A stretch of DNA of 64,000 nucleotides from Nitrospirota bacterium (GCA_049325335.1 JBMOMC010000001.1:32001-96000), one strand, 5' to 3'; positions 17,623 through 30,183 are shown, counted from the stretch's first letter. The notes: generated from the sequence alone by a model not told the origin. Numbers and translations are program-made.

Positions 17623-18777
17623 TCAATCCTCGCGGGAATCATCCAGGACCACGAGATTGTCGCAATGGATGACCTCGTCATAATATTTGTATCCCAATCG
17701 TTTTGCAATCTCGGACGTTTTGAGGCCGCAAATCTTCGCCACGTCCGAGGACGAGTAGTTGACCAGCCCACGCGCCACCACTCGGCCGGCGGAATCCAGA
17801 CACGCCACCGCGTCGCCCGCGGCGAATTCCCCCGACACCTTGGTCACGCCGGAGGGCAACAGGCTTTTCCCGGAATCCACCACCGCCCGCACCGCGCCCG
17901 CGTCCAGCCACACCTGGCCGGAGACCCGCACCGCATGCGCGATCCAGCGTTGCCGGCTATTTAAGCCCCGGGCGCGCGGGAAAAACATCGTGCCCACCGG
18001 TTCGCCCCGCAGCGCACGGTTTAACTCCCCGGTGCGATGACCGCTGACGATGATGGTTGCGGCTCCGCACGCGGCCGCGCGTTTGGCCGCCGCGAGTTTG
18101 GTCACCATCCCCCCGGTCCCCTCGCTGCGGCTCGACCCGCCCGCAGCGCGCTCCACCTCGGGCGTCACCCGCTCCACGTTGACCAACCGCGCGGCCGCGG
18201 GATCGCGGTGCGGATCCCCGGTGTACAAGCCGTCCACATCGGACAGGATGACCAAGAGATGCGCGTCGATCAACCCGACCACCAAGCTCGCCAACGCATC
18301 GTTGTCCCCGAACTTAATTTCATCCACCGAGACCGTGTCGTTTTCGTTGATGATCGGGACCACGCCGAGGCCCAACAACGTCAGCATGGTATGGCGCGCG
18401 TTGAGAAATCGCGTGCGCCGCGAGAGGTCATCGCCGGTCAACAGAACCTGCGCCACGTGCCGTTTGTGGCGCGCGAAGGCCCGTTCATACGCCCACATCA
18501 AGCGGCTCTGTCCGACCGCGGCCGCGGCCTGTTTGAGCGGCAAACTCTTGGGACGTTCGGTCAGTCCCAGCGGCGCCAGGCCGGAGGCGATCGCGCCGGA
18601 CGACACCATCGCCAGTTGGTAGCCGTCGGCCGCGAGCGCGGCGCATTCGCGCGCGAGCGCGCCGATCCGTCGGACGTTGATCCCGCGCGCGTGCGACGCC
18701 AGGACGCTGCTGCCGACCTTGATCACCACGCGCCGAGCGCGGCTCAACACGGACTGTCTTTGGAATGGACCCGTCAC
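17623..18777 (-). CDS. proB: Glutamate 5-kinase
   Basis: [36 protein letters not shown] domain. Confidence 0.97.
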
Positions 18778-19826
18778 CGCGTGTCCGAAGATATGGCCGC
18801 GTCGGGCGCGTTCACCGCCGATGCCGACTGTTCCGCGCGGGACACACGGGAGCCCACCGCCCGCAACAACGCGTCGATCCCTTGCCCCGTGGCAGCGGAG
18901 ACTTCAAAATACGGCCAACCGCGCCTGCCGCAGTACTCGCGCAGGACATCCACCGCGCCGCTGCCGGCCGCGTCCAGTTTGGTCGCCACCACCACGAACG
19001 GTTTGGCCGCGAGTTCAGGGCTGGTCAGCGCCAACTCTCGCCGCACGGACTCCATGTCCTCGACCGGCCGTCCGCCCGCCGCATCCGACACGTCCACCAG
19101 ATGCAACAAAAAAGCCGTGCGCTCGACGTGACGGAGAAATTGAATGCCCAACCCCTTGCCTTCGTGCGCGCCTTCGATCAGCCCCGGAATATCCGCCGCG
19201 ACAAAACTCCGGCCTTCGGCCCACGTGACCACCCCGAGCGCGGGTTCCAACGTCGTGAACGGGTACGCCGCGATCTTGGGCCGCGCGGCCGAGATCGTGG
19301 ACAACAAGGTGGATTTGCCCGCGTTCGGCAACCCCACCAAACCGACGTCCGCGAGCAATTTCAACTCCAGCGTCAGGCTGCGCTCCTCGCCCGCCCCGCC
19401 GGGCTCGGCAAACGTGGGGGCCTGACGCGTGGGCGTGGCGAAGTGCTGGTTGCCGCGTCCGCCGCGTCCGCCACGGGCGACCACGAGTTCCTGATCGGCC
19501 GCGATCAAATCAGCCAACACCTCGCCCTGGGACGCGTCGCGCACGATCGTGCCGACCGGCACGCGGATGATCAGATCTTCGCCGCGTTTTCCGCTCTGGT
19601 CCTTCCCGCGGCCGTGTTCTCCTCGTTGCGCCGCGTACAGCCTGCGATAGCGAAGATCTAATAAGGTATGAAGTTGGGGGTCGGCCCGGAGAATGACGCT
19701 GCCGCCGTGGCCGCCGTCGCCGCCGTTGGGGCCGCCGCGGGGGACAAAGGCTTCGCGACGGAAGCTGACGCATCCGTTTCCGCCGTCACCGGCCTTGACG
19801 TGAATGGAGAGATAGTCGACGAACAT
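18774..19826 (-). CDS. obgE: GTPase ObgE/CgtA
   Basis: MFVD, Gly-rich Obg domain, [19 protein letters not shown]. Confidence 0.98.
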
Positions 19827-19892
19827 ACCAGGCAGAGGCGCGAATCGCCGACCAATTTCGACGGGGCGCGCCGGCCCCGTGTAGCCAAGGGG

Positions 19893-20153
19893 TTACGCGG
19901 AGACGGGGTAGACGCTCACGCGTTTGCGATCGGTGCCTTTTCCTTCAAAGGTGACCACGCCGGCGATCTTGGCGAACAACGTGTCGTCCCCGCCGCGACC
20001 CACGTTGAATCCGGGGTGGAACTTGGTTCCGCGCTGGCGAACCAAGATGGAGCCCGCCGTCACGACTTGGCCGCCGTACCGCTTGACGCCCAACCGTTGG
20101 GCGTTGCTGTCGCGCCCGTTTTGAGTCGATCCCTGCCCTTTTTTATGCGCCAT
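19893..20153 (-). CDS. rpmA: 50S ribosomal protein L27
   Basis: [20 protein letters not shown]. Confidence 0.99.
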
Positions 20154-20171
20154 ACGTCCTCGTGTCGCCCG

Positions 20172-20486
20172 TTATGCCGCGGCGATCTGCGTAATTTTAA
20201 TGGTCGTCAGTTCCTGGCGATGGCCCCTAGTCTTGCGGTGATTCTTGCGCCGTTTCTTTTTAAAAGCGATCACCTTGCGCCCGCGAGTCTGCGCCACCAC
20301 CTCCGCGGCCACACGCGCGCGCTCCACCACCGGCGCCCCGAGCACCAGCCCCTGGCCGCCCTCGACGGCCAATACACGATCAAATTCCACCGTGGCGCCA
20401 ACCGGTTGATCCAACCGCTCGATCTGAACCAGCTCACCCGGCGCCACCCGGTATTGCTTGCCGCCCGTTTCAATCACCGCGTACAT
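20172..20486 (-). CDS. rplU: 50S ribosomal protein L21
   Basis: MYAVIETGGKQY...GHRQ; start trimmed. Confidence 0.98.
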   Translation of the reverse strand: MYAVIETGGKQYRVAPGELVQIERLDQPVGATVEFDRVLAVEGGQGLVLGAPVVERARVAAEVVAQTRGRKVIAFKKKRRKNHRKTRGHRQELTTIKITQIAAA

Positions 20487-20524
20487 AAGGCCTCCCCAGC
20501 GCAATCCAGTGAAATAAGCTGAAT

Positions 20525-20554
20525 TTTTTAGCACGGGGCATGGCTTAAAGTCAA
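20525..20554 (-). promoter_or_regulatory. Putative promoter of the rplU-rpmA-obgE operon
   Basis: TTGACT-18-TAAAAA with an extended -10 TG. Confidence 0.45.
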
Positions 20555-20793
20555 GCAGCCGCTGATCGGCAGCCGCGAATCGGAGATGGCGACGTCATTC
20601 GCGACACCGCGCCACCTAAGCGCCTCGGATGTCGAACGGAGGACGCTGGCGTCGATCTTGGCATCCTCCGCCGAGCCATCGAACGACGCGAGACCACGGC
20701 ACGGATTCAACAAACGGCCAGCGTGGAAGCGATTGCCGATTGTTGTCGGGTGTTGTCGGAACGACTTAAGGTACGAGAACCCGTGTGAACCGA

Positions 20794-22266
20794 TCAGCCC
20801 GACACCGTGGCCACTGTTTCGGTTCCGGGAAGAGCGACAGGGGAACCGGGCGCTGGGTGGCCGACCTCGCGCGCGATCCGGTCGGCAAGCTGGAGTCCGT
20901 GGGTCAGACAGTCTCGGACCGAAACGCCGCGCAGGTAGTTGCCCGCCAGGTAGAGTCCGGGGAGCGGGGTCAGGAGACGGTCGATGGCGGCCACGCGCGC
21001 GGCGTGACCGATGAGATACTGCGGGATCGCACGCGGGTGACGGACGACGCGGGCGAATTCCGGCCGCCCCGCGAGCCCCACGAGGCCGCGTAGCGCCTCG
21101 ACCGTCCGCCCCACCAGTTCCTCGTCGGTCCACTTCAGCACGTCGTGATCACGCATGCCGCCGAGATAGTTGGTGAGCAACACTCGGCCTTGTGGCGCGC
21201 GATCCGGATACACGTTCGAGCTCCACAGCGATCCCAGGATCGGCAGTTCCTCGCGTTTCGGCACCAAACAACCGGAGCCTTCCGGCAACCGGGGGCAGGC
21301 GTCGCGACGTACGCCCAGGTGCACCAAGCCGACCGGCGCATACGGGATTTGTTCGAGCTGATCCGCCAATAACGGGGAGAGGTCGGTCGTGAGTTTGGCC
21401 GCGACGTCCGCGGGCGTGGCGATCACAAGACGATCCGCGACCAGTTCGCGCGGCTGGCCGCCGACATCCACCCGCGCGAGAAATCGCGCAATGCCGTCGC
21501 GGACCTCTCGGCGCACGCCCAGCACCCTCGCGCCGGTGACCACCCGCTCGCCCAGAGCGGCGCGTAACGCCTCCGGCAAGCGCCCCACCCCGCCGCGGAA
21601 CGAAAAGACCTGGAGCGGACGCCGCGCGCGGCCTTGTTTCATTCTCGTGCGCAGCATGCCCCACACCACGCTCCCGTATTCGCGCTCCAGGGCTACGAGT
21701 TGGGGAAAGCTACTGGACATGGACAAATCATCGGGGTTCCCGCCGAAGATTCCGGCCACGAACGGTTCCACGCCGTAGTCCACCATCTCCGCGCCGAATC
21801 GGCGCCGAACAAACGCGGCCACGCTTTCATCCGACCGCGACTTGGACGAGGGGATCAGGGGTTCGGCCAGCGCGCGCAGTTTGGCCCACGGTCCCCACAA
21901 GGGCGAGCGCGGAACGTCACCCAACCGCGAGGGCACTGGAACCAGCGCGCGGTGTTTGACCAGATACCGGCGGCGGGTGAATGCCTGCTGGAACAGCCGT
22001 TCGTTTTCGAGGCCCAGCTCACGGCACAACCGGTCAACGGCCGGGCTCAGATTGAGCAGGCTGTTGGGGCCGTTTTCAACCAGATACCCGTCCGGCGTGC
22101 GTTCGCTGTGCACGCAGCCGCCCACGCGGGCGGCCTGCTCGAGCACGGTGACGCGCCAGCCAGATTGCGCCAAGCCATACGCGGTTGCCAGGCCGGACAC
22201 GCCAGCGCCGATGACCACTACTTGGTGTTCAGGTTGCACGGTCCAGATCCTCGTTCTGAGGACCAC
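20794..22266 (-). CDS. hemY: Protoporphyrinogen/coproporphyrinogen oxidase (HemY type)
   Basis: GAGVSGL FAD motif, E.GPNS, AIPQY..GH, GNY..GVSV.DC. Confidence 0.92.
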   Translation of the reverse strand: MVLRTRIWTVQPEHQVVVIGAGVSGLATAYGLAQSGWRVTVLEQAARVGGCVHSERTPDGYLVENGPNSLLNLSPAVDRLCRELGLENERLFQQAFTRRRYLVKHRALVPVPSRLGDVPRSPLWGPWAKLRALAEPLIPSSKSRSDESVAAFVRRRFGAEMVDYGVEPFVAGIFGGNPDDLSMSSSFPQLVALEREYGSVVWGMLRTRMKQGRARRPLQVFSFRGGVGRLPEALRAALGERVVTGARVLGVRREVRDGIARFLARVDVGGQPRELVADRLVIATPADVAAKLTTDLSPLLADQLEQIPYAPVGLVHLGVRRDACPRLPEGSGCLVPKREELPILGSLWSSNVYPDRAPQGRVLLTNYLGGMRDHDVLKWTDEELVGRTVEALRGLVGLAGRPEFARVVRHPRAIPQYLIGHAARVAAIDRLLTPLPGLYLAGNYLRGVSVRDCLTHGLQLADRIAREVGHPAPGSPVALPGTETVATVSG

Positions 22267-22337
22267 GCCCCTCGGGTCGTCGCAACACCGAGGAAATCGT
22301 GTACGTCATCGCCGTTACCGGATGATAACGCACGAGG

Positions 22338-22366
22338 ATTAGAAATGAATCCGAAAGGAAAGTCAA
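22338..22366 (-). promoter_or_regulatory. Putative hemY promoter
   Basis: TTGACT-17-TCTAAT. Confidence 0.55.
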
Positions 22367-22392
22367 GCGACGCCGGAACGAGACCGCTCCGG

Positions 22393-23643
22393 CTATTTGT
22401 TCATCGATTCCAGGAATTCACGATTGGTCTTGGTTCCGCGGATCTTGTCGAGCAAGAACTCCATGCTCTCCACCGTGCTGAGTGGGCTGAGCACCTTGCG
22501 GAGGATCCACATCTTATTCAGATCGTCCCGCTCGACCAACAACTCTTCTTTACGGGTGCCGGATAAATTGATGTCGATCGCCGGGAAAATACGCTTGTCC
22601 GCCAGTTTACGGTCCAAGTGTAACTCCATATTGCCGGTGCCCTTGAACTCCTCGAAAATCACGTCGTCCATCCGGCTTCCAGTGTCGATCAAGGCCGTGG
22701 CCATAATGGTCAGGCTTCCGCCGTTCTCGATGTTGCGCGCCGCGCCGAAGAATCGTTTGGGCCGCTGCAACGCGTTGGCGTCCAACCCCCCGGACAGCAC
22801 CTTGCCGCTCGGCGGCGCGATTGTATTGTAGGCACGCGCCAGACGCGTGATGCTGTCGAGCAGGATCACCACGTCACGACGGTGCTCGACCAGCCGCTTG
22901 GCCTTCTCCAGGACCATCTCCGCCACCTGCGCGTGCCGTTGCGGGGGCTCATCGAACGTGGAACTCACGACCTCGGCCTTGACTTGTCGCTGCCAATCGG
23001 TGACTTCTTCCGGCCGTTCGTCGATCAGGAGCACGATCAGCGTGATTTCCGGGTGATTTTTCATGACCGCTTTTGCGATGTTTTGCAGTAACACGGTCTT
23101 CCCGGTACGGGGAGACGCCACGATCAATCCGCGCTGGCCTTTCCCGATCGGCGCCACCAACTCCATCACCCGGGTGGAAATGTCGTCGCCGCCCGGGGCT
23201 TCGAGTCGAACCTTCTCCATCGGATATAGCGGCGTGAGGTTGTCGAACAAAATTTTATCGCGCGCCACTTCCGGATCTTCAAAGTTGATCTTCTCCACTT
23301 TGAGCATCGCGAAGTACCGTTCGCCTTCTTTGGGCGGACGGACTTGGCCCGACACCACGTCGCCGGTGCGCAGGTTAAACCTGCGGATCTGTGACGGCGA
23401 GATATAGATGTCGTCCGGGCCCGGCAGATAGTTGTAATCCGGGGAGCGCAGGAAGCCGAACCCGTCCTGGAGCGTCTCGAGGACCCCTTCGCCGTAAATG
23501 GTCCCGTTCTTCTCCGCCTGCGCCTGAAGGATGGCGAAGATCAACTCCTGCTTGCGCAGATTGCTCGCGCCTTCGATCTTGAGATCCTTGGCGACTTCGT
23601 TGAGGTCGGCGATCGTCTTCTCTTTGAGTTCGCTTAGATTCAT
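22393..23643 (-). CDS. rho: Transcription termination factor Rho
   Basis: [44 protein letters not shown] before the ATG at 23643. Confidence 0.99.
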
Positions 23644-23877
23644 GGGGTCTCCTGCGGGCCCAAGGTCATGCCGCGCCGCATCATGTCGCACGCGACCCGC
23701 GTCGCGTCCACGTCATCATGCCTCCGGCGTCGGAAATGACGTTGCTTCGTGTAGTGGTTAATTCGTCCTACTGCAAAATCCGTTGGTCTTCAACGCGTCT
23801 TTGGGGATTGATTCGGATGTCCGTGCCACCGCGACAGTAAATTGGGGTTAACGCCTGGAAGAAACAGAACCGTTGTG

Positions 23878-23906
23878 AGTATACGAAGCCTCATGACAGT
23901 TGTCAA
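23878..23906 (-). promoter_or_regulatory. Near-consensus sigma70 promoter of rho (about 230-nt leader)
   Basis: TTGACA-17-TATACT. Confidence 0.8.
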
Positions 23907-23933
23907 ATTGCCTCCGACCCGGCCGGCGGCGGC

Positions 23934-24116
23934 TTACACGATATCGCGCGCCTTCACCGTCTTGCGGCCGTCGGCGCGCGCGCGTTCGATCGCGTCGAGA
24001 CACATTTTTTCAACGCGCTGACTCAACGCGTCGAGCGTCTCCGCCGATGTATTAAAGTCCGCTTTTTCACGGACCAACCGTTTAATTTTCGACGACACCA
24101 CCAACATCTCCGCCAT
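23934..24116 (-). CDS. Bacterial histone-fold protein (Bd0055/HBb-like, 60 aa)
   Basis: MAEMLVVSSKIKRLVREKADFNTSAETLDALS...ARADGRKTVKARDIV: histone L2/alpha3 signature RKTVxxRDI; strong GGAGGAGG RBS. Confidence 0.9.
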   Translation of the reverse strand: MAEMLVVSSKIKRLVREKADFNTSAETLDALSQRVEKMCLDAIERARADGRKTVKARDIV

Positions 24117-24150
24117 ACGCGCCTCCTCCCGGGTTTCGTGACTCGTTGCG

Positions 24151-24747
24151 TTACACAAACAGTGAAATATCGCTGCTCGACGCGAATTCCAAAAACGTGG
24201 CCGCGCCGACCGGCTCCTGCAAGCCGTCGATCAAGTCCTCGCGCTTGATGTTCATCATGTCCATCGTCATCTGACAGGGCCACAATTTCACGCCAGACTC
24301 CTTGGCGACGTCCATGAGTTCCGGCAGCGAGGCAATGTGTTTTTGTTTGATGGTCTGCTTCATCATCAATGTGGCGAGTCCCGTCATGCCGGGCAACGCG
24401 CCCACCAAGTTGGGTATCGGCATCGGCATCGCCGGGTTGGCCACCGGCACGAACTTGAGGTTCTCAACCCCGCCCTTTTTGACGATCTGCAACCCGAAAA
24501 ACGTAAAAAACACGCCGACCTCCATATCGAGCGCGGCCGCGGTGGTCGCCAAGATCAACGGAGGGTAGGCCGCGTCCAGCGTGCCCTTGGACGACACAAT
24601 GGCGATCCGCTTCGGTCGGGTCTTGCGCGCTTCGGCGTCGAGCGCCGCCTTCACCTGCGCGCGCACCAGTTCCTCGAGTCGGTGCTCGGCCAACTCCCTG
24701 ACCTTTGCGGCCACCACTTGGTCGAGTTCTTGCGACGTCAATCCCAT
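24151..24747 (-). CDS. DsrE2/DsrE-like sulfur-relay (peroxiredoxin-like) protein
   Basis: SKGTLD.AYPPLILA.TAAA, FFTFFG, CQMTMD, VGAATFL. Confidence 0.85.
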   Translation of the reverse strand: MGLTSQELDQVVAAKVRELAEHRLEELVRAQVKAALDAEARKTRPKRIAIVSSKGTLDAAYPPLILATTAAALDMEVGVFFTFFGLQIVKKGGVENLKFVPVANPAMPMPIPNLVGALPGMTGLATLMMKQTIKQKHIASLPELMDVAKESGVKLWPCQMTMDMMNIKREDLIDGLQEPVGAATFLEFASSSDISLFV

Positions 24748-24796
24748 GTTCACTCCTCGGCAACCGCCGGACGACGAGCCGAACGGTTGCGCCGGC

Positions 24797-25042
24797 CTAC
24801 TTGGTCTTGCGGATAAAAAACGTGTACACGCCGGGTTCCTCGCGCGTCTCCAGGATTTCGTGTCCCGTGCTCTTGGACCACGCCGCCATATCGGGCTTAG
24901 AGCCCGGATCAGTCGCGATCATTTGGAGCACTTGCCCGAGGGACATCTGTTCAAGCGCCTTCTTGGTTTTGATCACCGGCAGAGGGCAGTTCAGCCCCTT
25001 ACAATCGAGCACTTGCGAAACCGTGTATGCCGCCCCCATCAT
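24797..25042 (-). CDS. tusA: TusA/SirA-family sulfur carrier
   Basis: LDCKGLNCPLPVIKTKK, ATDPGS..D. Confidence 0.93.
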   Translation of the reverse strand: MMGAAYTVSQVLDCKGLNCPLPVIKTKKALEQMSLGQVLQMIATDPGSKPDMAAWSKSTGHEILETREEPGVYTFFIRKTK

Positions 25043-25093
25043 TCGACCTCGGTATGTGTCACGTTCAGTGGACCAATCGATCTCGCGATATCG

Positions 25094-25360
25094 TTACCAC
25101 ACGGTCACGGTCGCGGCATTGACCACCATGCCGGCGATCTCGTCGTACCCGACTTGCCGGTGCGGGGTGGTGATCCCGCGGGCCTGCGCGTCTTCGTCGT
25201 TGACCCAGACCGTCGTCCCGGCGGGCGGCTCCGCGAACACGCCGTCCTGCACCAACACCACGTCCACGGGTGATTCGCGGCCCTGCGCCGCGATCACGGC
25301 CCAAGCCACGTCATCGGCGCGGCGGCGCACGATGTGGAGCGCGCGACCGCCCGTCACCAC
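25094..25360 (-). CDS. DsrH/TusB-like protein
   Basis: LVQDGV, D..ARG, Y.EI..MV...VTVW. Confidence 0.75.
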   Translation of the reverse strand: MVTGGRALHIVRRRADDVAWAVIAAQGRESPVDVVLVQDGVFAEPPAGTTVWVNDEDAQARGITTPHRQVGYDEIAGMVVNAATVTVW

Positions 25361-25698
25361 GGAATCACCACATCGGACGCGGCCAGAAGTGCGGTGAGGT
25401 CCGCGCGCTCGATCGGCTGCACGCGGGCGCGCACCCCCCCCCGATACCGGACGGGCAATGCGTCGCGCTCCACCACTTCACGAATATGACACGCATCGAA
25501 CAACTCCAGGGAATCGGTCAAGCCCGGACGCTGAATGCGGTCGCTCTGTAACGCCAACGCCGCGCACGCGCCGTCGCCCGTGTACGCCACGGTCACGCGA
25601 TGATTGGACAATGTCATGCCCAACGCCATACGCAGCGCTTCATGCACCCGTCCCGTGGTCAGCGGGTTGCTCCGAACAGCGACCACGACGTGTTTCAC
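25354..25698 (-). CDS. DsrF/TusC-like protein
   Basis: EALRMALG, GDG motif, C-terminal DVVIPW; lies between the dsrE-like and dsrH-like genes. Confidence 0.7.
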   Translation of the reverse strand: MKHVVVAVRSNPLTTGRVHEALRMALGMTLSNHRVTVAYTGDGACAALALQSDRIQRPGLTDSLELFDACHIREVVERDALPVRYRGGVRARVQPIERADLTALLAASDVVIPW

Positions 25699-25704
25699 CG
25701 GTGA

Positions 25705-26043
25705 TTACGACCCAAACGCGAGAAATCGATCAGCTCGGTCAACAATCCGGGACAACTCGTACTGGCTGGCAATTTCAGTCCCAGGGTACAGGTCGGCCTC
25801 GGAGAGCCCCCGGGCTTCAGCGGTCACTCCGCACACCGACACCTTGGCCCCCATACTCATCACGGTCGGAAACGCCGTGTACGCCCGCTTGGGCGACGAA
25901 AACGCTTGCGCATGATACACGCCATCACCCATCAAGAACAATTCGACCTCGTGTCCCTCTTTTAACCAGGCCTCGGAGAGCTTCGCCACGAGATAGCCGT
26001 CCTCATAATCGTCGCTACTCGTCAACAACAGGCCGATTTTCAT
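25705..26043 (-). CDS. DsrE/TusD-like sulfurtransferase
   Basis: GHEVELFLMGDGVY, active-site C in VCGVTAEARG, ADRFLAF. Confidence 0.85.
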   Translation of the reverse strand: MKIGLLLTSSDDYEDGYLVAKLSEAWLKEGHEVELFLMGDGVYHAQAFSSPKRAYTAFPTVMSMGAKVSVCGVTAEARGLSEADLYPGTEIASQYELSRIVDRADRFLAFGS

Positions 26044-26048
26044 GGCAA

Positions 26049-26078
26049 ATTGTATGATGGCCCGAAAACGTTTGTCAA
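26049..26078 (-). promoter_or_regulatory. Sigma70 promoter implying a leaderless dsrE-operon mRNA
   Basis: TTGACA-18-TACAAT ending 5 nt before the ATG; no Shine-Dalgarno. Confidence 0.65.
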
Positions 26079-26161
26079 CAGAATCCCGCAGAGAAATAAT
26101 TCGCGTCTATGATACAATGCGCTGGCGCACGACGCGCGCGACGACCGGAGGGACCCGTCTT

Positions 26162-26893
26162 ATGGCAGCGCAACCGACGTTTCAAGAACAACTCCTACGC
26201 GTGATGGACCGGAAGGACCACTGGGCGTGGAAAGCGTTTTCCAGCGGAGCCGTCACCGTTGACCAACTCAAAATTCACTTTCAGCAAGAATACGTGGTCT
26301 ACGTGCGCGACTTCCCCGTGTTCCTGGCGCGCGTCCACGGGAAAAATCCTCCGATGCCGGTTCGCCGCGCATTGGCGGAAAATCTTTACGAAGAGGAAAC
26401 CGGCGGGCTCACGCGCGGCCGGGCCCACCCGGAAATGTTTTTATATCTGATGGAAGGCCTGAAATTTGCCGCGCGGGACTTCGAGGAGATCCACCTGCTG
26501 CCCGAAAGCGCGGGATACCGACGATGGCTCGACCAAGTCACCGCCGCCGCGTCCTGGATCGAGGGCGCGGCGGTGACCACGATCTTCGTGGAGGGGAGCG
26601 TGCATGAACGCGCGGTCTTCGACGACTCGGTTCGGGAGGAGCCCAACATCGAGCGGAAAATCGCGGAACACCCGTTGGTCAAATACCACGGAGTCCCGCC
26701 CCGTCACTTGGAACTGGCCCGCGCGCACGGCGCCATCGAAGGGCTGCACCGGCGCGACGCGTGGAAGATCGTGTTGGACCACGCCACCACCCCTGAAACG
26801 CAGCAACGCGTGCTCCACGCCATGGAGCGGTCGCTGGAGCTGTGGTTGGCGTATCGGGATGGGGTCGCCAAGGCCTGCGGCATCACCCGATAA
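26162..26893 (+). CDS. Heme-oxygenase-like diiron enzyme (CADD/PqqC/TenA superfamily)
   Basis: ENLYEEE..G....H, VEG, H...E..H diiron ligand pattern; GGAGG RBS; start trimmed to MAAQPTF. Confidence 0.8.
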   Translation: MAAQPTFQEQLLRVMDRKDHWAWKAFSSGAVTVDQLKIHFQQEYVVYVRDFPVFLARVHGKNPPMPVRRALAENLYEEETGGLTRGRAHPEMFLYLMEGLKFAARDFEEIHLLPESAGYRRWLDQVTAAASWIEGAAVTTIFVEGSVHERAVFDDSVREEPNIERKIAEHPLVKYHGVPPRHLELARAHGAIEGLHRRDAWKIVLDHATTPETQQRVLHAMERSLELWLAYRDGVAKACGITR

Positions 26894-26897
26894 CGTG

Positions 26898-27079
26898 GGA
26901 GCCTGTCCATGAGTGGCCATCTGCAGCGTTGTCACTTCGGCTTCGCCACCTGTCGAGGAAGCAACGATTGCATTCCGCGCCTCTGGCGCGGTGCAGGTTC
27001 CGCCTTGCGACCTACCGCCAGAAATTCAAAAGTCGGAAGTCCCCGAAGGGGGCAGCTGACGCGCTCCTGAACAGGCTCC
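26898..27079 (+). mobile_element. MITE-like element, copy A (TIR GGAGCCTGT...ACAGGCTCC)
   Basis: Terminal inverted repeats; internal CCATCTG..CGTTG and CGCCTTGC motifs shared with copies B and C. Confidence 0.75.
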
Positions 27080-27116
27080 GGTTCCCGGGAACCTCAATCC
27101 ACTCCGAAAATCTCTC

Positions 27117-28037
27117 GTGCCCACACCCACCACAATCGGGATAGCCTGCGCCGTGGTCACGTGCGTGACCTGGGGCGTGGCGGATTATCTGGCTGCGCGG
27201 ATTACGCGCCAGGTCGGCGAGGTCGTTGCGCTACTGCGCGTCCAACTGGTGGGCGCGCCGGTCCTGATCCTCTCGTGGGTGATCCTGCGCCCCCCGCTGC
27301 CCGGCGCCGCCGACCTCGTGTGGATCAGCGCGGCGGCCGCATGTTTTCTGGTCGGGTATGTAAGCTTTTTCTATGGGCTGCGGGTGGGCGTCATCTCCCT
27401 CGTGAGCCCGATCAGCAGCGCTGGCGCTTTGATCCCGGCGCTTGCGGGCATGATGCTGTTCGGCGAAGTGATCTCCGGCGTTCGTTTCGGCGCCGCGGCG
27501 CTGGCGTTGTTGGGCGTTGTGGTTCTCACCGCCGATCCCGCGGCCATCGGATCGCTGGCCGCGGAGGGCCGGCGAAACGGTGTTAAGGCCGGGATCGTGA
27601 CCCTGGTGGCGTGGGGGTCCGGAACCGCACTGCTCTTGCCCGCAATCCGGCATGTCGGCGCGTTCGCTCCCATCGCCGTCCTACGTCTGGAAATTCTGGC
27701 GCTGCTCGCCGGGTGGTGGCTCGCGCGCCGCGCGATCGTCCAACACACGCCCGCCGCGCCCGGTGTCCCGGCCCGCGATACGCCGTTCGCCGGCGGGTGG
27801 AACCTTGTGGTCCCCGCCGCGTTGCTCGACCTGACGGCTTTCTTTGCGTACGGGGTCGCGTTGCGAGACGCGCCGGCCGTGGTCGCGGCGCCCATTGCGT
27901 CCGCGTATCCGTTGGTGACCATTTTGATCGCGCGGCATCATCTCAGCGAGAGGTTGTCGGGCCGCGAGTGGCTCGGCGTCGGCCTCACCCTCGCCGGCGC
28001 CGCCTTGCTCGGCGCGGACTGTTGCGATGCGCCCTGA
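27117..28037 (+). CDS. EamA/DMT-family transporter
   Basis: About 10 hydrophobic segments in two repeats; WG.ADY, SPISS, L.ERL. Confidence 0.88.
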   Translation: MPTPTTIGIACAVVTCVTWGVADYLAARITRQVGEVVALLRVQLVGAPVLILSWVILRPPLPGAADLVWISAAAACFLVGYVSFFYGLRVGVISLVSPISSAGALIPALAGMMLFGEVISGVRFGAAALALLGVVVLTADPAAIGSLAAEGRRNGVKAGIVTLVAWGSGTALLLPAIRHVGAFAPIAVLRLEILALLAGWWLARRAIVQHTPAAPGVPARDTPFAGGWNLVVPAALLDLTAFFAYGVALRDAPAVVAAPIASAYPLVTILIARHHLSERLSGREWLGVGLTLAGAALLGADCCDAP

Positions 28038-28061
28038 CGGCCGGACTGCGACGACGATCGG

Positions 28062-28090
28062 TTGAAAAGGCGCCAAGCGCCTGCTAAGAT
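28062..28090 (+). promoter_or_regulatory. Putative glmM promoter (near-leaderless)
   Basis: TTGAAA-17-TAAGAT with a TG extension, 9 nt before the GTG start. Confidence 0.55.
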
Positions 28091-28099
28091 CAACCCATT

Positions 28100-29494
28100 G
28101 TGTCCAAGCTCGCCGTAGAACGCAGATTATTCGGCACCGATGGGGTCCGTGGCACCGCCAATATCGAGCCCGTCACCGCCGAAACCGCCATGAAATTGGG
28201 GCGGGCTGCGGCGTATCTCTTCAAAAAGCACCACACCGGCCACCACCGCTTCGTCATCGGCAAGGACACCCGTTTGTCCGGGTACATGATCGAGAGCGCG
28301 TTGACCGCGGGCGTGTGCTCCATGGGGGTGGACGTGCTCCTCGTGGGTCCGATGCCCACCCCGGCCATCGCGTTTTTGACCAAGAGCCTGCGCGCGGACG
28401 CGGGGGTGGTGATTTCCGCGTCACACAACCCGTTCGAGGACAACGGCATCAAGTTTTTTTCGCACGACGGTCTGAAACTGCCGGACGGCGTTGAACAGGA
28501 GATTGAGAACCTGGTGTTCTCCGGCGCGATCGAACACGAACGCCCGACCGCCCGGGAGATCGGCAAGGCGTTCCGCGTGGACGACGCGGACGGCCGGTAT
28601 ATCGAATTCGTGAAGAACACGTTGCCCAAGGGCGTGCAGTTCGACGGCCTCAAGGTCGTGGTAGACACGGCCAACGGCGCGGCGTACAAGGTCTCGCCGA
28701 CCGTGTTGCGGGAATTGGGCGCGGAGGTTATCACCATCGCGGACCGCCCGAACGGGACCAACATCAACCAGCATTGCGGCGCGCTGTACCCGGAAACGCT
28801 CCAGAAAGCGGTAGTCGCGCACCAGGCCAACATCGGCATCGCGCACGACGGCGACGCGGATCGCGTGGTGTTCTGCGACGAACAAGGCAAGATGGTCCAC
28901 GGGGACCAGATCCTCGCGTCGTGCGCGCTGGAGTTGGAACGCGCGGGTCGCTTGGCCGGGCACACCGTGGTCGCCACCGTGATGAGCAATCTAGGCTTGG
29001 AGCTGGCGTTGCGACCGGCCGGGATCTCGCTCGTTCGCACCGCGGTCGGCGATCGATACGTGTTGGAGCGTATGCTCAAAGACGGGTACGTCTTCGGCGG
29101 CGAGCAGTCCGGACACGTCATCTTTCTCGACTACAACACCACGGGCGACGGCCTGATCACCGCGCTTCAGGTCCTGGCCACGATGGAACGCACGGGCAAA
29201 TGTCTGTCTGAATTGGCCGCATGTATGACCGTGTGCCCGCAAGTGCTGGTCAACGTGCGGGTCGCGGAACGCCGTGATTTGAACGCGTTCCCCGGCTACA
29301 CGACGCTGCTGTCGGACTTTGAGCGCCGCATCGGTCCGCAAGGCCGCGTGTTGATCCGCTACTCGGGCACCGAACCGTTGCTGCGCGTGATGCTCGAAGG
29401 CGAGGACTTCCACACGATTTCGTCGGTGGCCGAGGAACTCGCGGACAGCCTCCGAACCCTCTTGGGCGCTCCTCCCGCAACCGGAGCCGCATGA
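28100..29494 (+). CDS. glmM: Phosphoglucosamine mutase
   Basis: [44 protein letters not shown]. Confidence 0.97.
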
Positions 29495-30183
29495 CCACGC
29501 TGCTGACCGTCGCGTTGCTCCTCGCCGTAACGTGGCCCGGTCCGTCCGCGGCCGCTGACGCGTACGACGCGGTGCTCAACAGCCCCCACAACTTCTTCGC
29601 GCGTTCCGAGTTTCCCGTCGGCCGTCGGGTCTGCACCGGGTGTCACGCCGACGAGCCGGCGCCGATGACTCCGGACGCCGCGCCGCCAGCCGAGAACGAG
29701 ATCGCCCCGGCAGGGGACGCGTTGCCCCCACCCCTGTGGCAACGCGAGGCCGCAGCCTATACGGTCTCGGCGGTTCGATCGACCGACGCGTCGAACGCCT
29801 GTTTGGGGTGTCACGACGGCGTGCTGGGCGGGGAAATCCACCAGACCGTCGCGCGCGGCGCCAAATCGTTCGACCACCCCAATAACGTGGTGTACCCGCG
29901 TCGCGCCAACGGCCAGTTCGTGCCGGAGCGGCCCACAGTCAACGTGTATCGGTATTGGTCGATTCCTGATCTGCGCGACGGCGCGTTGGTGTTGCCCACC
30001 GGGCCGACATCGACCCGCCTCACGTTGCCGGCGGCGGACCAGACGAGTTCCGGCGCGCGATTGGTCCGCACCTCGCAGGGCATGGTCCAGTGCGACAGCT
30101 GCCACGACCCGCACGATAACGCGAGCGCGCCGTTCCTGCGCGCGCCCGCCCAGGATCTCTGCTTCATCTGTCACGACCGCTGA
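29491..30183 (+). CDS. Secreted tetraheme c-type cytochrome (doubled CXXCH family)
   Basis: Signal peptide; [23 protein letters not shown]. Confidence 0.88.

Follow-up and report, generated by a model that had tools for sequence, protein, structure and literature searches.

Why should a histone gene stand directly behind a set of genes for sulfur carriers? The question arises from a stretch of 64,000 nucleotides from a Nitrospirota bacterium (the whole of it referred to here as the window), in which a DsrE/F/H-TusA-DsrE2 sulfur relay is followed on the same strand by a small histone gene and then by rho. A first-pass annotation had proposed that the two parts work together, the relay either persulfidating the single cysteine of the histone or coupling sulfane-sulfur or redox state to nucleoid structure, and had allowed that the adjacency might be chance. 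The gene order is real and both of its parts are of known kinds, with no sign of chemical coupling between them. The features concerned are these:

22393..23643, minus strand: rho (profile match)
23878..23906, minus strand: separate sigma-70-like promoter of rho (11/12 consensus match)
23934..24116, minus strand: bacterial dimer histone of the HBb/Bd0055 type, 60 aa, with the Cys39 codon at 24002-24000
24117..24150, minus strand: dsrE2-histone gap of 34 bp, with a strong ribosome-binding site at 24129-24122 and no promoter-like site
24151..24747, minus strand: DsrE2-like sulfur carrier, 198 aa, Cys158 (PF13686, E 6e-51; NF047629, 179.5 bits against a cut-off of 210)
24797..25039, minus strand: TusA-family sulfur carrier with a CPLP motif (Cys18; PF01206, E 1e-24)
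25094..25360, minus strand: DsrH-like protein, 88 aa, no Cys (PF04077, E 0.008, below cut-off; TIGR03011, E 7e-4)
25354..25698, minus strand: DsrF-like protein, 114 aa, Cys70 (PF02635, E 2.6e-5; TIGR03010, 21.4 bits against a cut-off of 94.15)
25705..26043, minus strand: DsrE-like sulfur carrier, 112 aa, Cys71 (PF02635, E 1.7e-15)
26049..26078, minus strand: sigma-70-like promoter at the operon head, TTGACA-18-TACAAT (11/12 consensus match)
26162..26893, plus strand: CADD-like (haem-oxygenase-like di-iron) gene, divergent from the relay (PF14518, E 2e-18)

The minus-strand order is thus dsrE-dsrF-dsrH-tusA-dsrE2-histone, and the spacing from 5' to 3' is 6 bp, a 7-bp overlap (dsrF/dsrH), 54, 49 and 34 bp; the third of these becomes 51 bp if an upstream ATG is used for tusA, and the fourth 43 bp with an upstream GTG for dsrE2. 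The annotated picture of co-oriented genes with gaps under about 55 bp is confirmed by these gene calls, which place the largest gap at 54 bp. An Rfam scan of 20000-30000 and a tRNA scan were both empty. A distant homologue of the CADD-like protein (23%) lies 2 kb from tusA-dsrE2 in a genome of another family (L197, family f4).

The histone is single-copy in its genome and aligns without gaps to the Bdellovibrio structure 8FVX over residues 1-60 (E 4e-21), with 63% identity to Bd0055/HBb over 60 aa. It is predicted to take the histone fold (pLDDT 87), the top five structure matches all being HBb, and the model has helices at 2-19 and 25-48 followed by a 3-residue helix, that is, a short alpha2 and a one-turn alpha3. 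Its residues include S9, K10, K12 and R16, R51-K52-T53-V54, R57-D58 and A48, and so supply the S9-K10 pair, the basic residues of alpha1, the RKTV motif of L2 and the RD clamp, with alanine where the tetramer histidine would stand. The 'bacterial dimer' category, marked by high sequence similarity to HBb, has been defined by sequence clustering (PMC10627809, PMC11390915). By sequence and predicted fold, our histone fits every criterion tested for that group and would be a DNA-bending nucleoid protein of the ordinary HBb type, its function as a dimer being a prediction. It is under purifying selection (pN 0.063 against pS 0.649 over 45 pairs of the 10 linked copies). In Bdellovibrio, HBb is abundant and probably essential.

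Nitrospirota are absent from the main text of PMC10627809, PMC11390915 and bioRxiv 10.1101/2023.02.26.530074, the supplementary histone tables of the first two of which may list members, and the main text of the bioRxiv report makes no mention of Cys, operon or Nitrospir*. A literature search, with subscription journals mostly outside its scope, found nothing uniting Nitrospir* with bacterial histones among the matches listed. The present set widens the range of HBb-type histones to several families of Nitrospirota, Manganitrophus included. Two genomes of family f10 (L023, L024) have a second, distant histone-like gene of 38-43% identity.

The relay looks intact at its active sites. The DsrE cysteine is present in 16 of 16 aligned homologues, that of DsrF in 15 of 16, and those of TusA and DsrE2 in 31 of 31 each. 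By profile score the proteins are further from the reference groups: DsrE, DsrF and DsrH fall far under the NCBIfam TusBCD/DsrEFH cut-offs (23.6 against 89.25, 21.4 against 94.15 and 19.7 against 49.2 bits), TusA matches PF01206 with the CPxP cysteine and stays under the E. coli-type equivalog cut-off of NF001423 (58.1 against 78), and DsrE2, which misses the NF047629 cut-off (179.5 against 210 bits), passes PF13686 (173 against 25) with its cysteine invariant. DsrE2 also has an N-terminal extension of ~45 aa. As a histone-binding adaptor this extension was considered and dropped, since it occurs where the genes are unlinked or no histone was found; several families with an unlinked histone carry it too.

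The first-pass annotation had remarked that dsrAB, dsrC/tusE and mnmA are missing from the window, and the search of the genome (99% complete) agrees. No DsrC/TusE acceptor was found (0 matches to PF04358, with a positive E. coli control), neither DsrA nor SoxY was detected anywhere in it, YeeE/YedE (PF04143) gave 0 matches and TIGR02064 none over the cut-off; MnmA is encoded on the same contig as the relay, ~535 kb away. A DsrEFH-TusA-DsrE2 set whose cysteines are intact, encoded where DsrC, DsrA, SoxY and YeeE gave no match, raises the side question of what the acceptor of this relay is.

Several related loci occur elsewhere in the source genome. A second dsrEFH-like trio, ~30-35% identical to the window copy and with no adjacent tusA, lies at G000:C2:391250-392210 (L227). 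TusA-like domains were seen as a C-terminal fusion to a sulfite/nitrite-reductase-like protein beside ATP sulfurylase (G000:C2:54675-57176), in or just before the frame of an ABC transporter ATPase beside an NMT1-like binding protein (G000:C7:172636-172854), and as a stand-alone protein (G000:C43:170492-170737). An Fe-S subunit and a two-CCG protein adjoin malate dehydrogenase at G000:C2:40283-42111 (L224:6283-8111); of the three CCG loci checked, this one resembles a CCG-type succinate dehydrogenase more than it does sHdr.

How widely is the histone tied to the relay? A search of 41 related genomes recovered the histone in 22. Within the Nitrospirota family of the window, the order relay-histone-rho is present in all seven genomes, and in three of three close metagenome contigs as far as the contigs extend. 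No relay gene was seen near the histone in any of the 15 histone-bearing genomes of five other families, inspected across 9-16 kb in 14 cases and 3 kb in one; 12 of these genomes have dsrE2 on a separate contig, and the other three gave no match to it. Among the 80 best GTDB histone loci, of at least 488, profiles for the five relay proteins had no match at 76, which are mostly from Bdellovibrionota and other Nitrospirota and hence not 76 independent lineages, and of which 69 hold at least 3 kb upstream and seven less than 3 kb. The four with a match all carry the gene block of the family and are hence not independent cases. Of 25 metagenome loci, 22 hold distantly related histones (33-65% over short stretches) and gave no relay match, a phylum-wide profile search of 301 genomes turned up 8 with a histone and no case of linkage beyond those already counted, and no fusion of histone and relay domains was present among 210 histone homologues. 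Five genomes of family f6 (82-96% complete) carry the full five-gene relay and have no histone match with the same profile that matched eight genomes elsewhere. Conservation of the linkage across histone-bearing bacteria, on which the first-pass annotation had let its idea of a pairing depend, did not hold up: synteny confines it to one Nitrospirota family, where it spans two genera (identity 94-99% for Rho and as low as 57% for DsrH). Among the loci compared, the linkage has one origin only.

Within that family, the surroundings are just as stable. The genes glmM, eamA, cadd, rho and hemY keep the same places in seven of seven genomes, and the positions of comEC and a cytochrome gene are kept in four of four checked; the histone-dsrE2 adjacency is no more conserved than that of eamA and cadd. 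In addition, rho has moved. In other families rpmE-prfA comes next after rho in 19 of 21 genomes, the remaining two reaching a contig edge, but none of four genomes of this family has that order; in the source genome rpmE-prfA is on another contig (G000:C44:75527-76867). As annotated at first, rho has its own promoter downstream of the histone (the 11/12 site at 23906-23878), and a site of 11-12/12 precedes it in six of six other family genomes. The rho leader, ~235 nt, has C-rich blocks that are conserved within the family and may serve Rho autoregulation. The histone itself may still be close to where it stood before, because genes of the rpmA-obg-proB run are near it in two settings: in family f10 (L036, L038, L039, L041) histone and proB converge where that run ends, and in the window the same genes (17623-20534) are 3.4-6 kb downstream of it. 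The equal conservation of unrelated neighbours and the displacement of rho both suggest a reshuffle particular to this lineage, accompanied by capture of a promoter.

The promoter pattern bears on how the histone is now transcribed. A scan of 22000-28000 gave three promoter-like sites (shuffles: mean 1.2, sd 1.2), two of them 11/12 matches, and none before the histone, as the first-pass remark on a 34-bp gap with no obvious promoter had it. No terminator-like site was detected in that gap; the one minus-strand match (24211-24199) falls within the coding sequence of dsrE2. For comparison among loci, the sigma-70 consensus was scored in the 200 bp upstream of each histone gene against 200 shuffles. 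The best score was at most 7 in all 10 linked loci (shuffle p 0.45-0.99), whereas all 15 unlinked class members reached 9-11, nine of them at p <=0.005 and six at p 0.055-0.215, although kin within these sets are not independent. Because the unlinked loci have a sigma-70-like histone promoter of their own and none of the 10 linked loci does, co-transcription is likely, with the histone gene as the probable last cistron of a single relay-histone transcript. The first-pass placing of the gene in the operon thus stands as to order, and as to transcription it is made probable by the promoter scores (at most 7 against 9-11). Purifying selection on the histone, together with its strong ribosome-binding site, makes its expression a fair presumption, and read-through would be the simplest route.

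At the head of the operon, the promoter hexamers and the 18-nt spacer are identical in eight of eight family loci examined. In the seven family loci with a mapped start, 5-6 nt separate the site from the ATG of dsrE, 5 nt in the window, and from this distance between -10 box and ATG the relay mRNA is probably leaderless. A short palindrome lies just after the -35 box. This promoter is not specific to the linkage, because three of three family f10 loci have a similar site before dsrE, with the histone elsewhere.

Taken together, we consider it likely that a reshuffle put an HBb-type histone gene behind the relay operon, where it was captured by the operon promoter and now travels as a passenger on the transcript. 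A rearrangement of the chromosome in the ancestor of the family would have placed the gene behind a pre-existing dsrEFH-tusA-dsrE2 operon and, in the same event, separated rho from rpmE-prfA. The histone gene would then have lost its own promoter, being read from the near-consensus operon promoter and translated from its own strong ribosome-binding site. Relay sulfur would pass among the active-site cysteines of the relay to acceptors encoded elsewhere, and the histone would not be a substrate, C39 being a core residue. That an own promoter is the ancestral state of the histone gene is suggested by its presence in five other families; the Rho tree recovers the family as monophyletic (100/100) and does not resolve the backbone of the others. 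Against this account it counts that the arrangement has endured across two genera and that no promoter has been regained in any of the 10 linked histone loci. The alternative of chance adjacency, which the first-pass annotation had raised itself, is the best fit to a linkage limited to one family and to the dissociation of C39 from the relay described below. The locus would thus be a tidy case of promoter capture, in which a conserved chromatin gene is left with no promoter after a rearrangement.

It is unlikely that the histone is a mere neighbour of the relay, outside its transcript and started from a weak or non-sigma-70 promoter in dsrE2 or in the gap. The gap ranges over 34-171 bp in the 10 family loci, and the eight longer ones (82-171 bp) fold into strong, GC-rich hairpins that could end or split the transcript; moreover, the histone loci of Bdellovibrio are mostly also devoid of a good sigma-70 match, so that the scan can miss real promoters. 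However, in two of the 10 loci, the window included, the gap is only 34 bp, the hairpins have no U-run, the aligned gaps have no motif in common besides the ribosome-binding site, and members of the class use sigma-70-like sites for the histone gene. The hairpin of several of these gaps is seen also at an unrelated place in an f2 locus, with 0 exact-pattern copies in the source genome, and we take it for a short palindromic repeat and not for a terminator.

Another potential reason for the arrangement is selected co-regulation, in which histone expression was handed to a sulfur-carrier promoter that senses sulfur or redox state, so that histone dosage and nucleoid compaction follow it with no covalent modification. 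We regard this as quite improbable. The absence of a histone promoter in all 10 linked loci, the purifying selection on the histone and the conservation of the promoter hexamers and of the leaderless spacing would all fit such control, but the linkage arose once, unrelated neighbours are as conserved, and the promoter, close to consensus and with no clear operator to the eye, is present in f10, where it has no histone behind it. If true, a histone dosage tied to sulfur would be a regulatory link that our literature search did not find for any prokaryotic histone; among the matches listed, with subscription journals mostly outside the scope, none joined a prokaryotic histone to DsrE, TusA or persulfide. 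To our knowledge, little has been established about the control of bacterial histone levels, and for this reason the captured promoter would matter more if it were sulfur- or redox-responsive.

Direct persulfidation of C39 by TusA or DsrE2, switching DNA binding, is a much less likely form of the sulfur link, and we give it very little credence. It has in its favour the adjacency and likely co-transcription, the intact relay cysteines, the lack of the usual acceptor (no DsrC found in the genome) and the retention of Cys at position 39 in 78 of the 80 best GTDB loci, of at least 488. The single cysteine does align with a cysteine of Bd0055, as the first-pass annotation had stated. Yet 74 of 76 unlinked loci keep it as well, and cysteine and relay dissociate in both directions: two Bdellovibrio genomes have C39 and no DsrE, DsrE2 or TusA match, while two Manganitrophus-group genomes (L086, L087) have tusA beside dsrE2 and Ala39, a natural Cys-free variant, and the full relay occurs in the five f6 genomes, which gave no histone match. 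A further genome, tested alongside the Bdellovibrio and Manganitrophus-group pairs, combines C39 with matches to DsrE and TusA, its DsrE2 match being weak. The conservation of C39 is thus independent of the relay.

The column itself is of the core type. Across 190 histone domains (150 cluster representatives), position 39 is occupied by C106, L24, A20, I14, V11 and T8, with 0% charged residues and a mean hydropathy of 2.6. It resembles core positions 31, 35, 42 and 46, whereas surface positions 36, 37, 40 and 41 are 47-69% charged, and it lies on the hydrophobic stripe of alpha2 (28, 31, 35, 38/39, 42, 43, 46). Judged by these substitutions, C39 behaves as a buried core residue, which argues against the exposed, reactive cysteine that an acceptor tracking the relay would offer. 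With histone-relay fusions also missing among the 210 homologues, the sequence evidence does not support the proposal that the relay persulfidates the histone, nor the wider idea of a functional pairing, the linkage being confined to one family.

Equally improbable is that the histone fills a slot for a terminal DNA-binding regulator, like the Rrf2-like gene that stands close behind the relay in five of five f6 genomes (L064-L068; one copy confirmed as PF02082), which lack the histone, for the gene after dsrE2 varies and non-regulators take that place in f10 (PyrE-like, recognised by eye) and f2 (DsrE-like), the histone keeps the HBb residues with no family-specific gain, and HBb is described in PMC11390915 as an abundant general DNA-bending protein.

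Relay and histone can both be set beside known systems. In TusA, DsrE and DsrEFH proteins elsewhere, sulfur passes between the proteins' own cysteines, according to PMC13293266 and PMC11094781. The window cluster has the dsrE-dsrF-dsrH order of type I DsrEFH (Allochromatium vinosum) and TusBCD, but its scores are below their cut-offs and DsrC was not found. It can also be compared with DsrEFH type II with TusA, which comes mainly from Desulfobacterota and Nitrospirota in the account of PMC13293266: the conserved DsrE cysteine, the dsrEFH order and the adjacent tusA are all present, a likeness of gene order and cysteine rather than of scores against the type II HMMs. Unlike type II as characterised there, our cluster has dsrE2 attached, and the usual partners (PF04143, TIGR02064) were not found. 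A CPxP TusA adjoins a DsrE2-family gene both here and in the TusA-DsrE2 modules of rDsr/sHdr sulfur oxidisers, for which see PMC11094781 and PMC4175335; unlike those organisms, the source genome yielded no Dsr or Sox marker.

On the histone side, the S9-K10 pair, RKTV, the RD clamp, Cys39, the short alpha2, the one-turn alpha3 and the absence of the tetramer histidine are all in common with HBb/Bd0055 of Bdellovibrio bacteriovorus (PDB 8FVX, 8FW7, 8CMP, 9EZZ, 9F0E). The gene differs from the Bdellovibrio one in its Nitrospirota host, its position behind a sulfur-carrier cluster and the lack of a sigma-70-like promoter of its own. The IHF-related histones, as PMC11390915 outlines them, are likewise prokaryotic histones that share an operon with other genes; their pairing, however, defines a whole histone category, whereas the arrangement described here is the exception of one family in an otherwise unlinked category.
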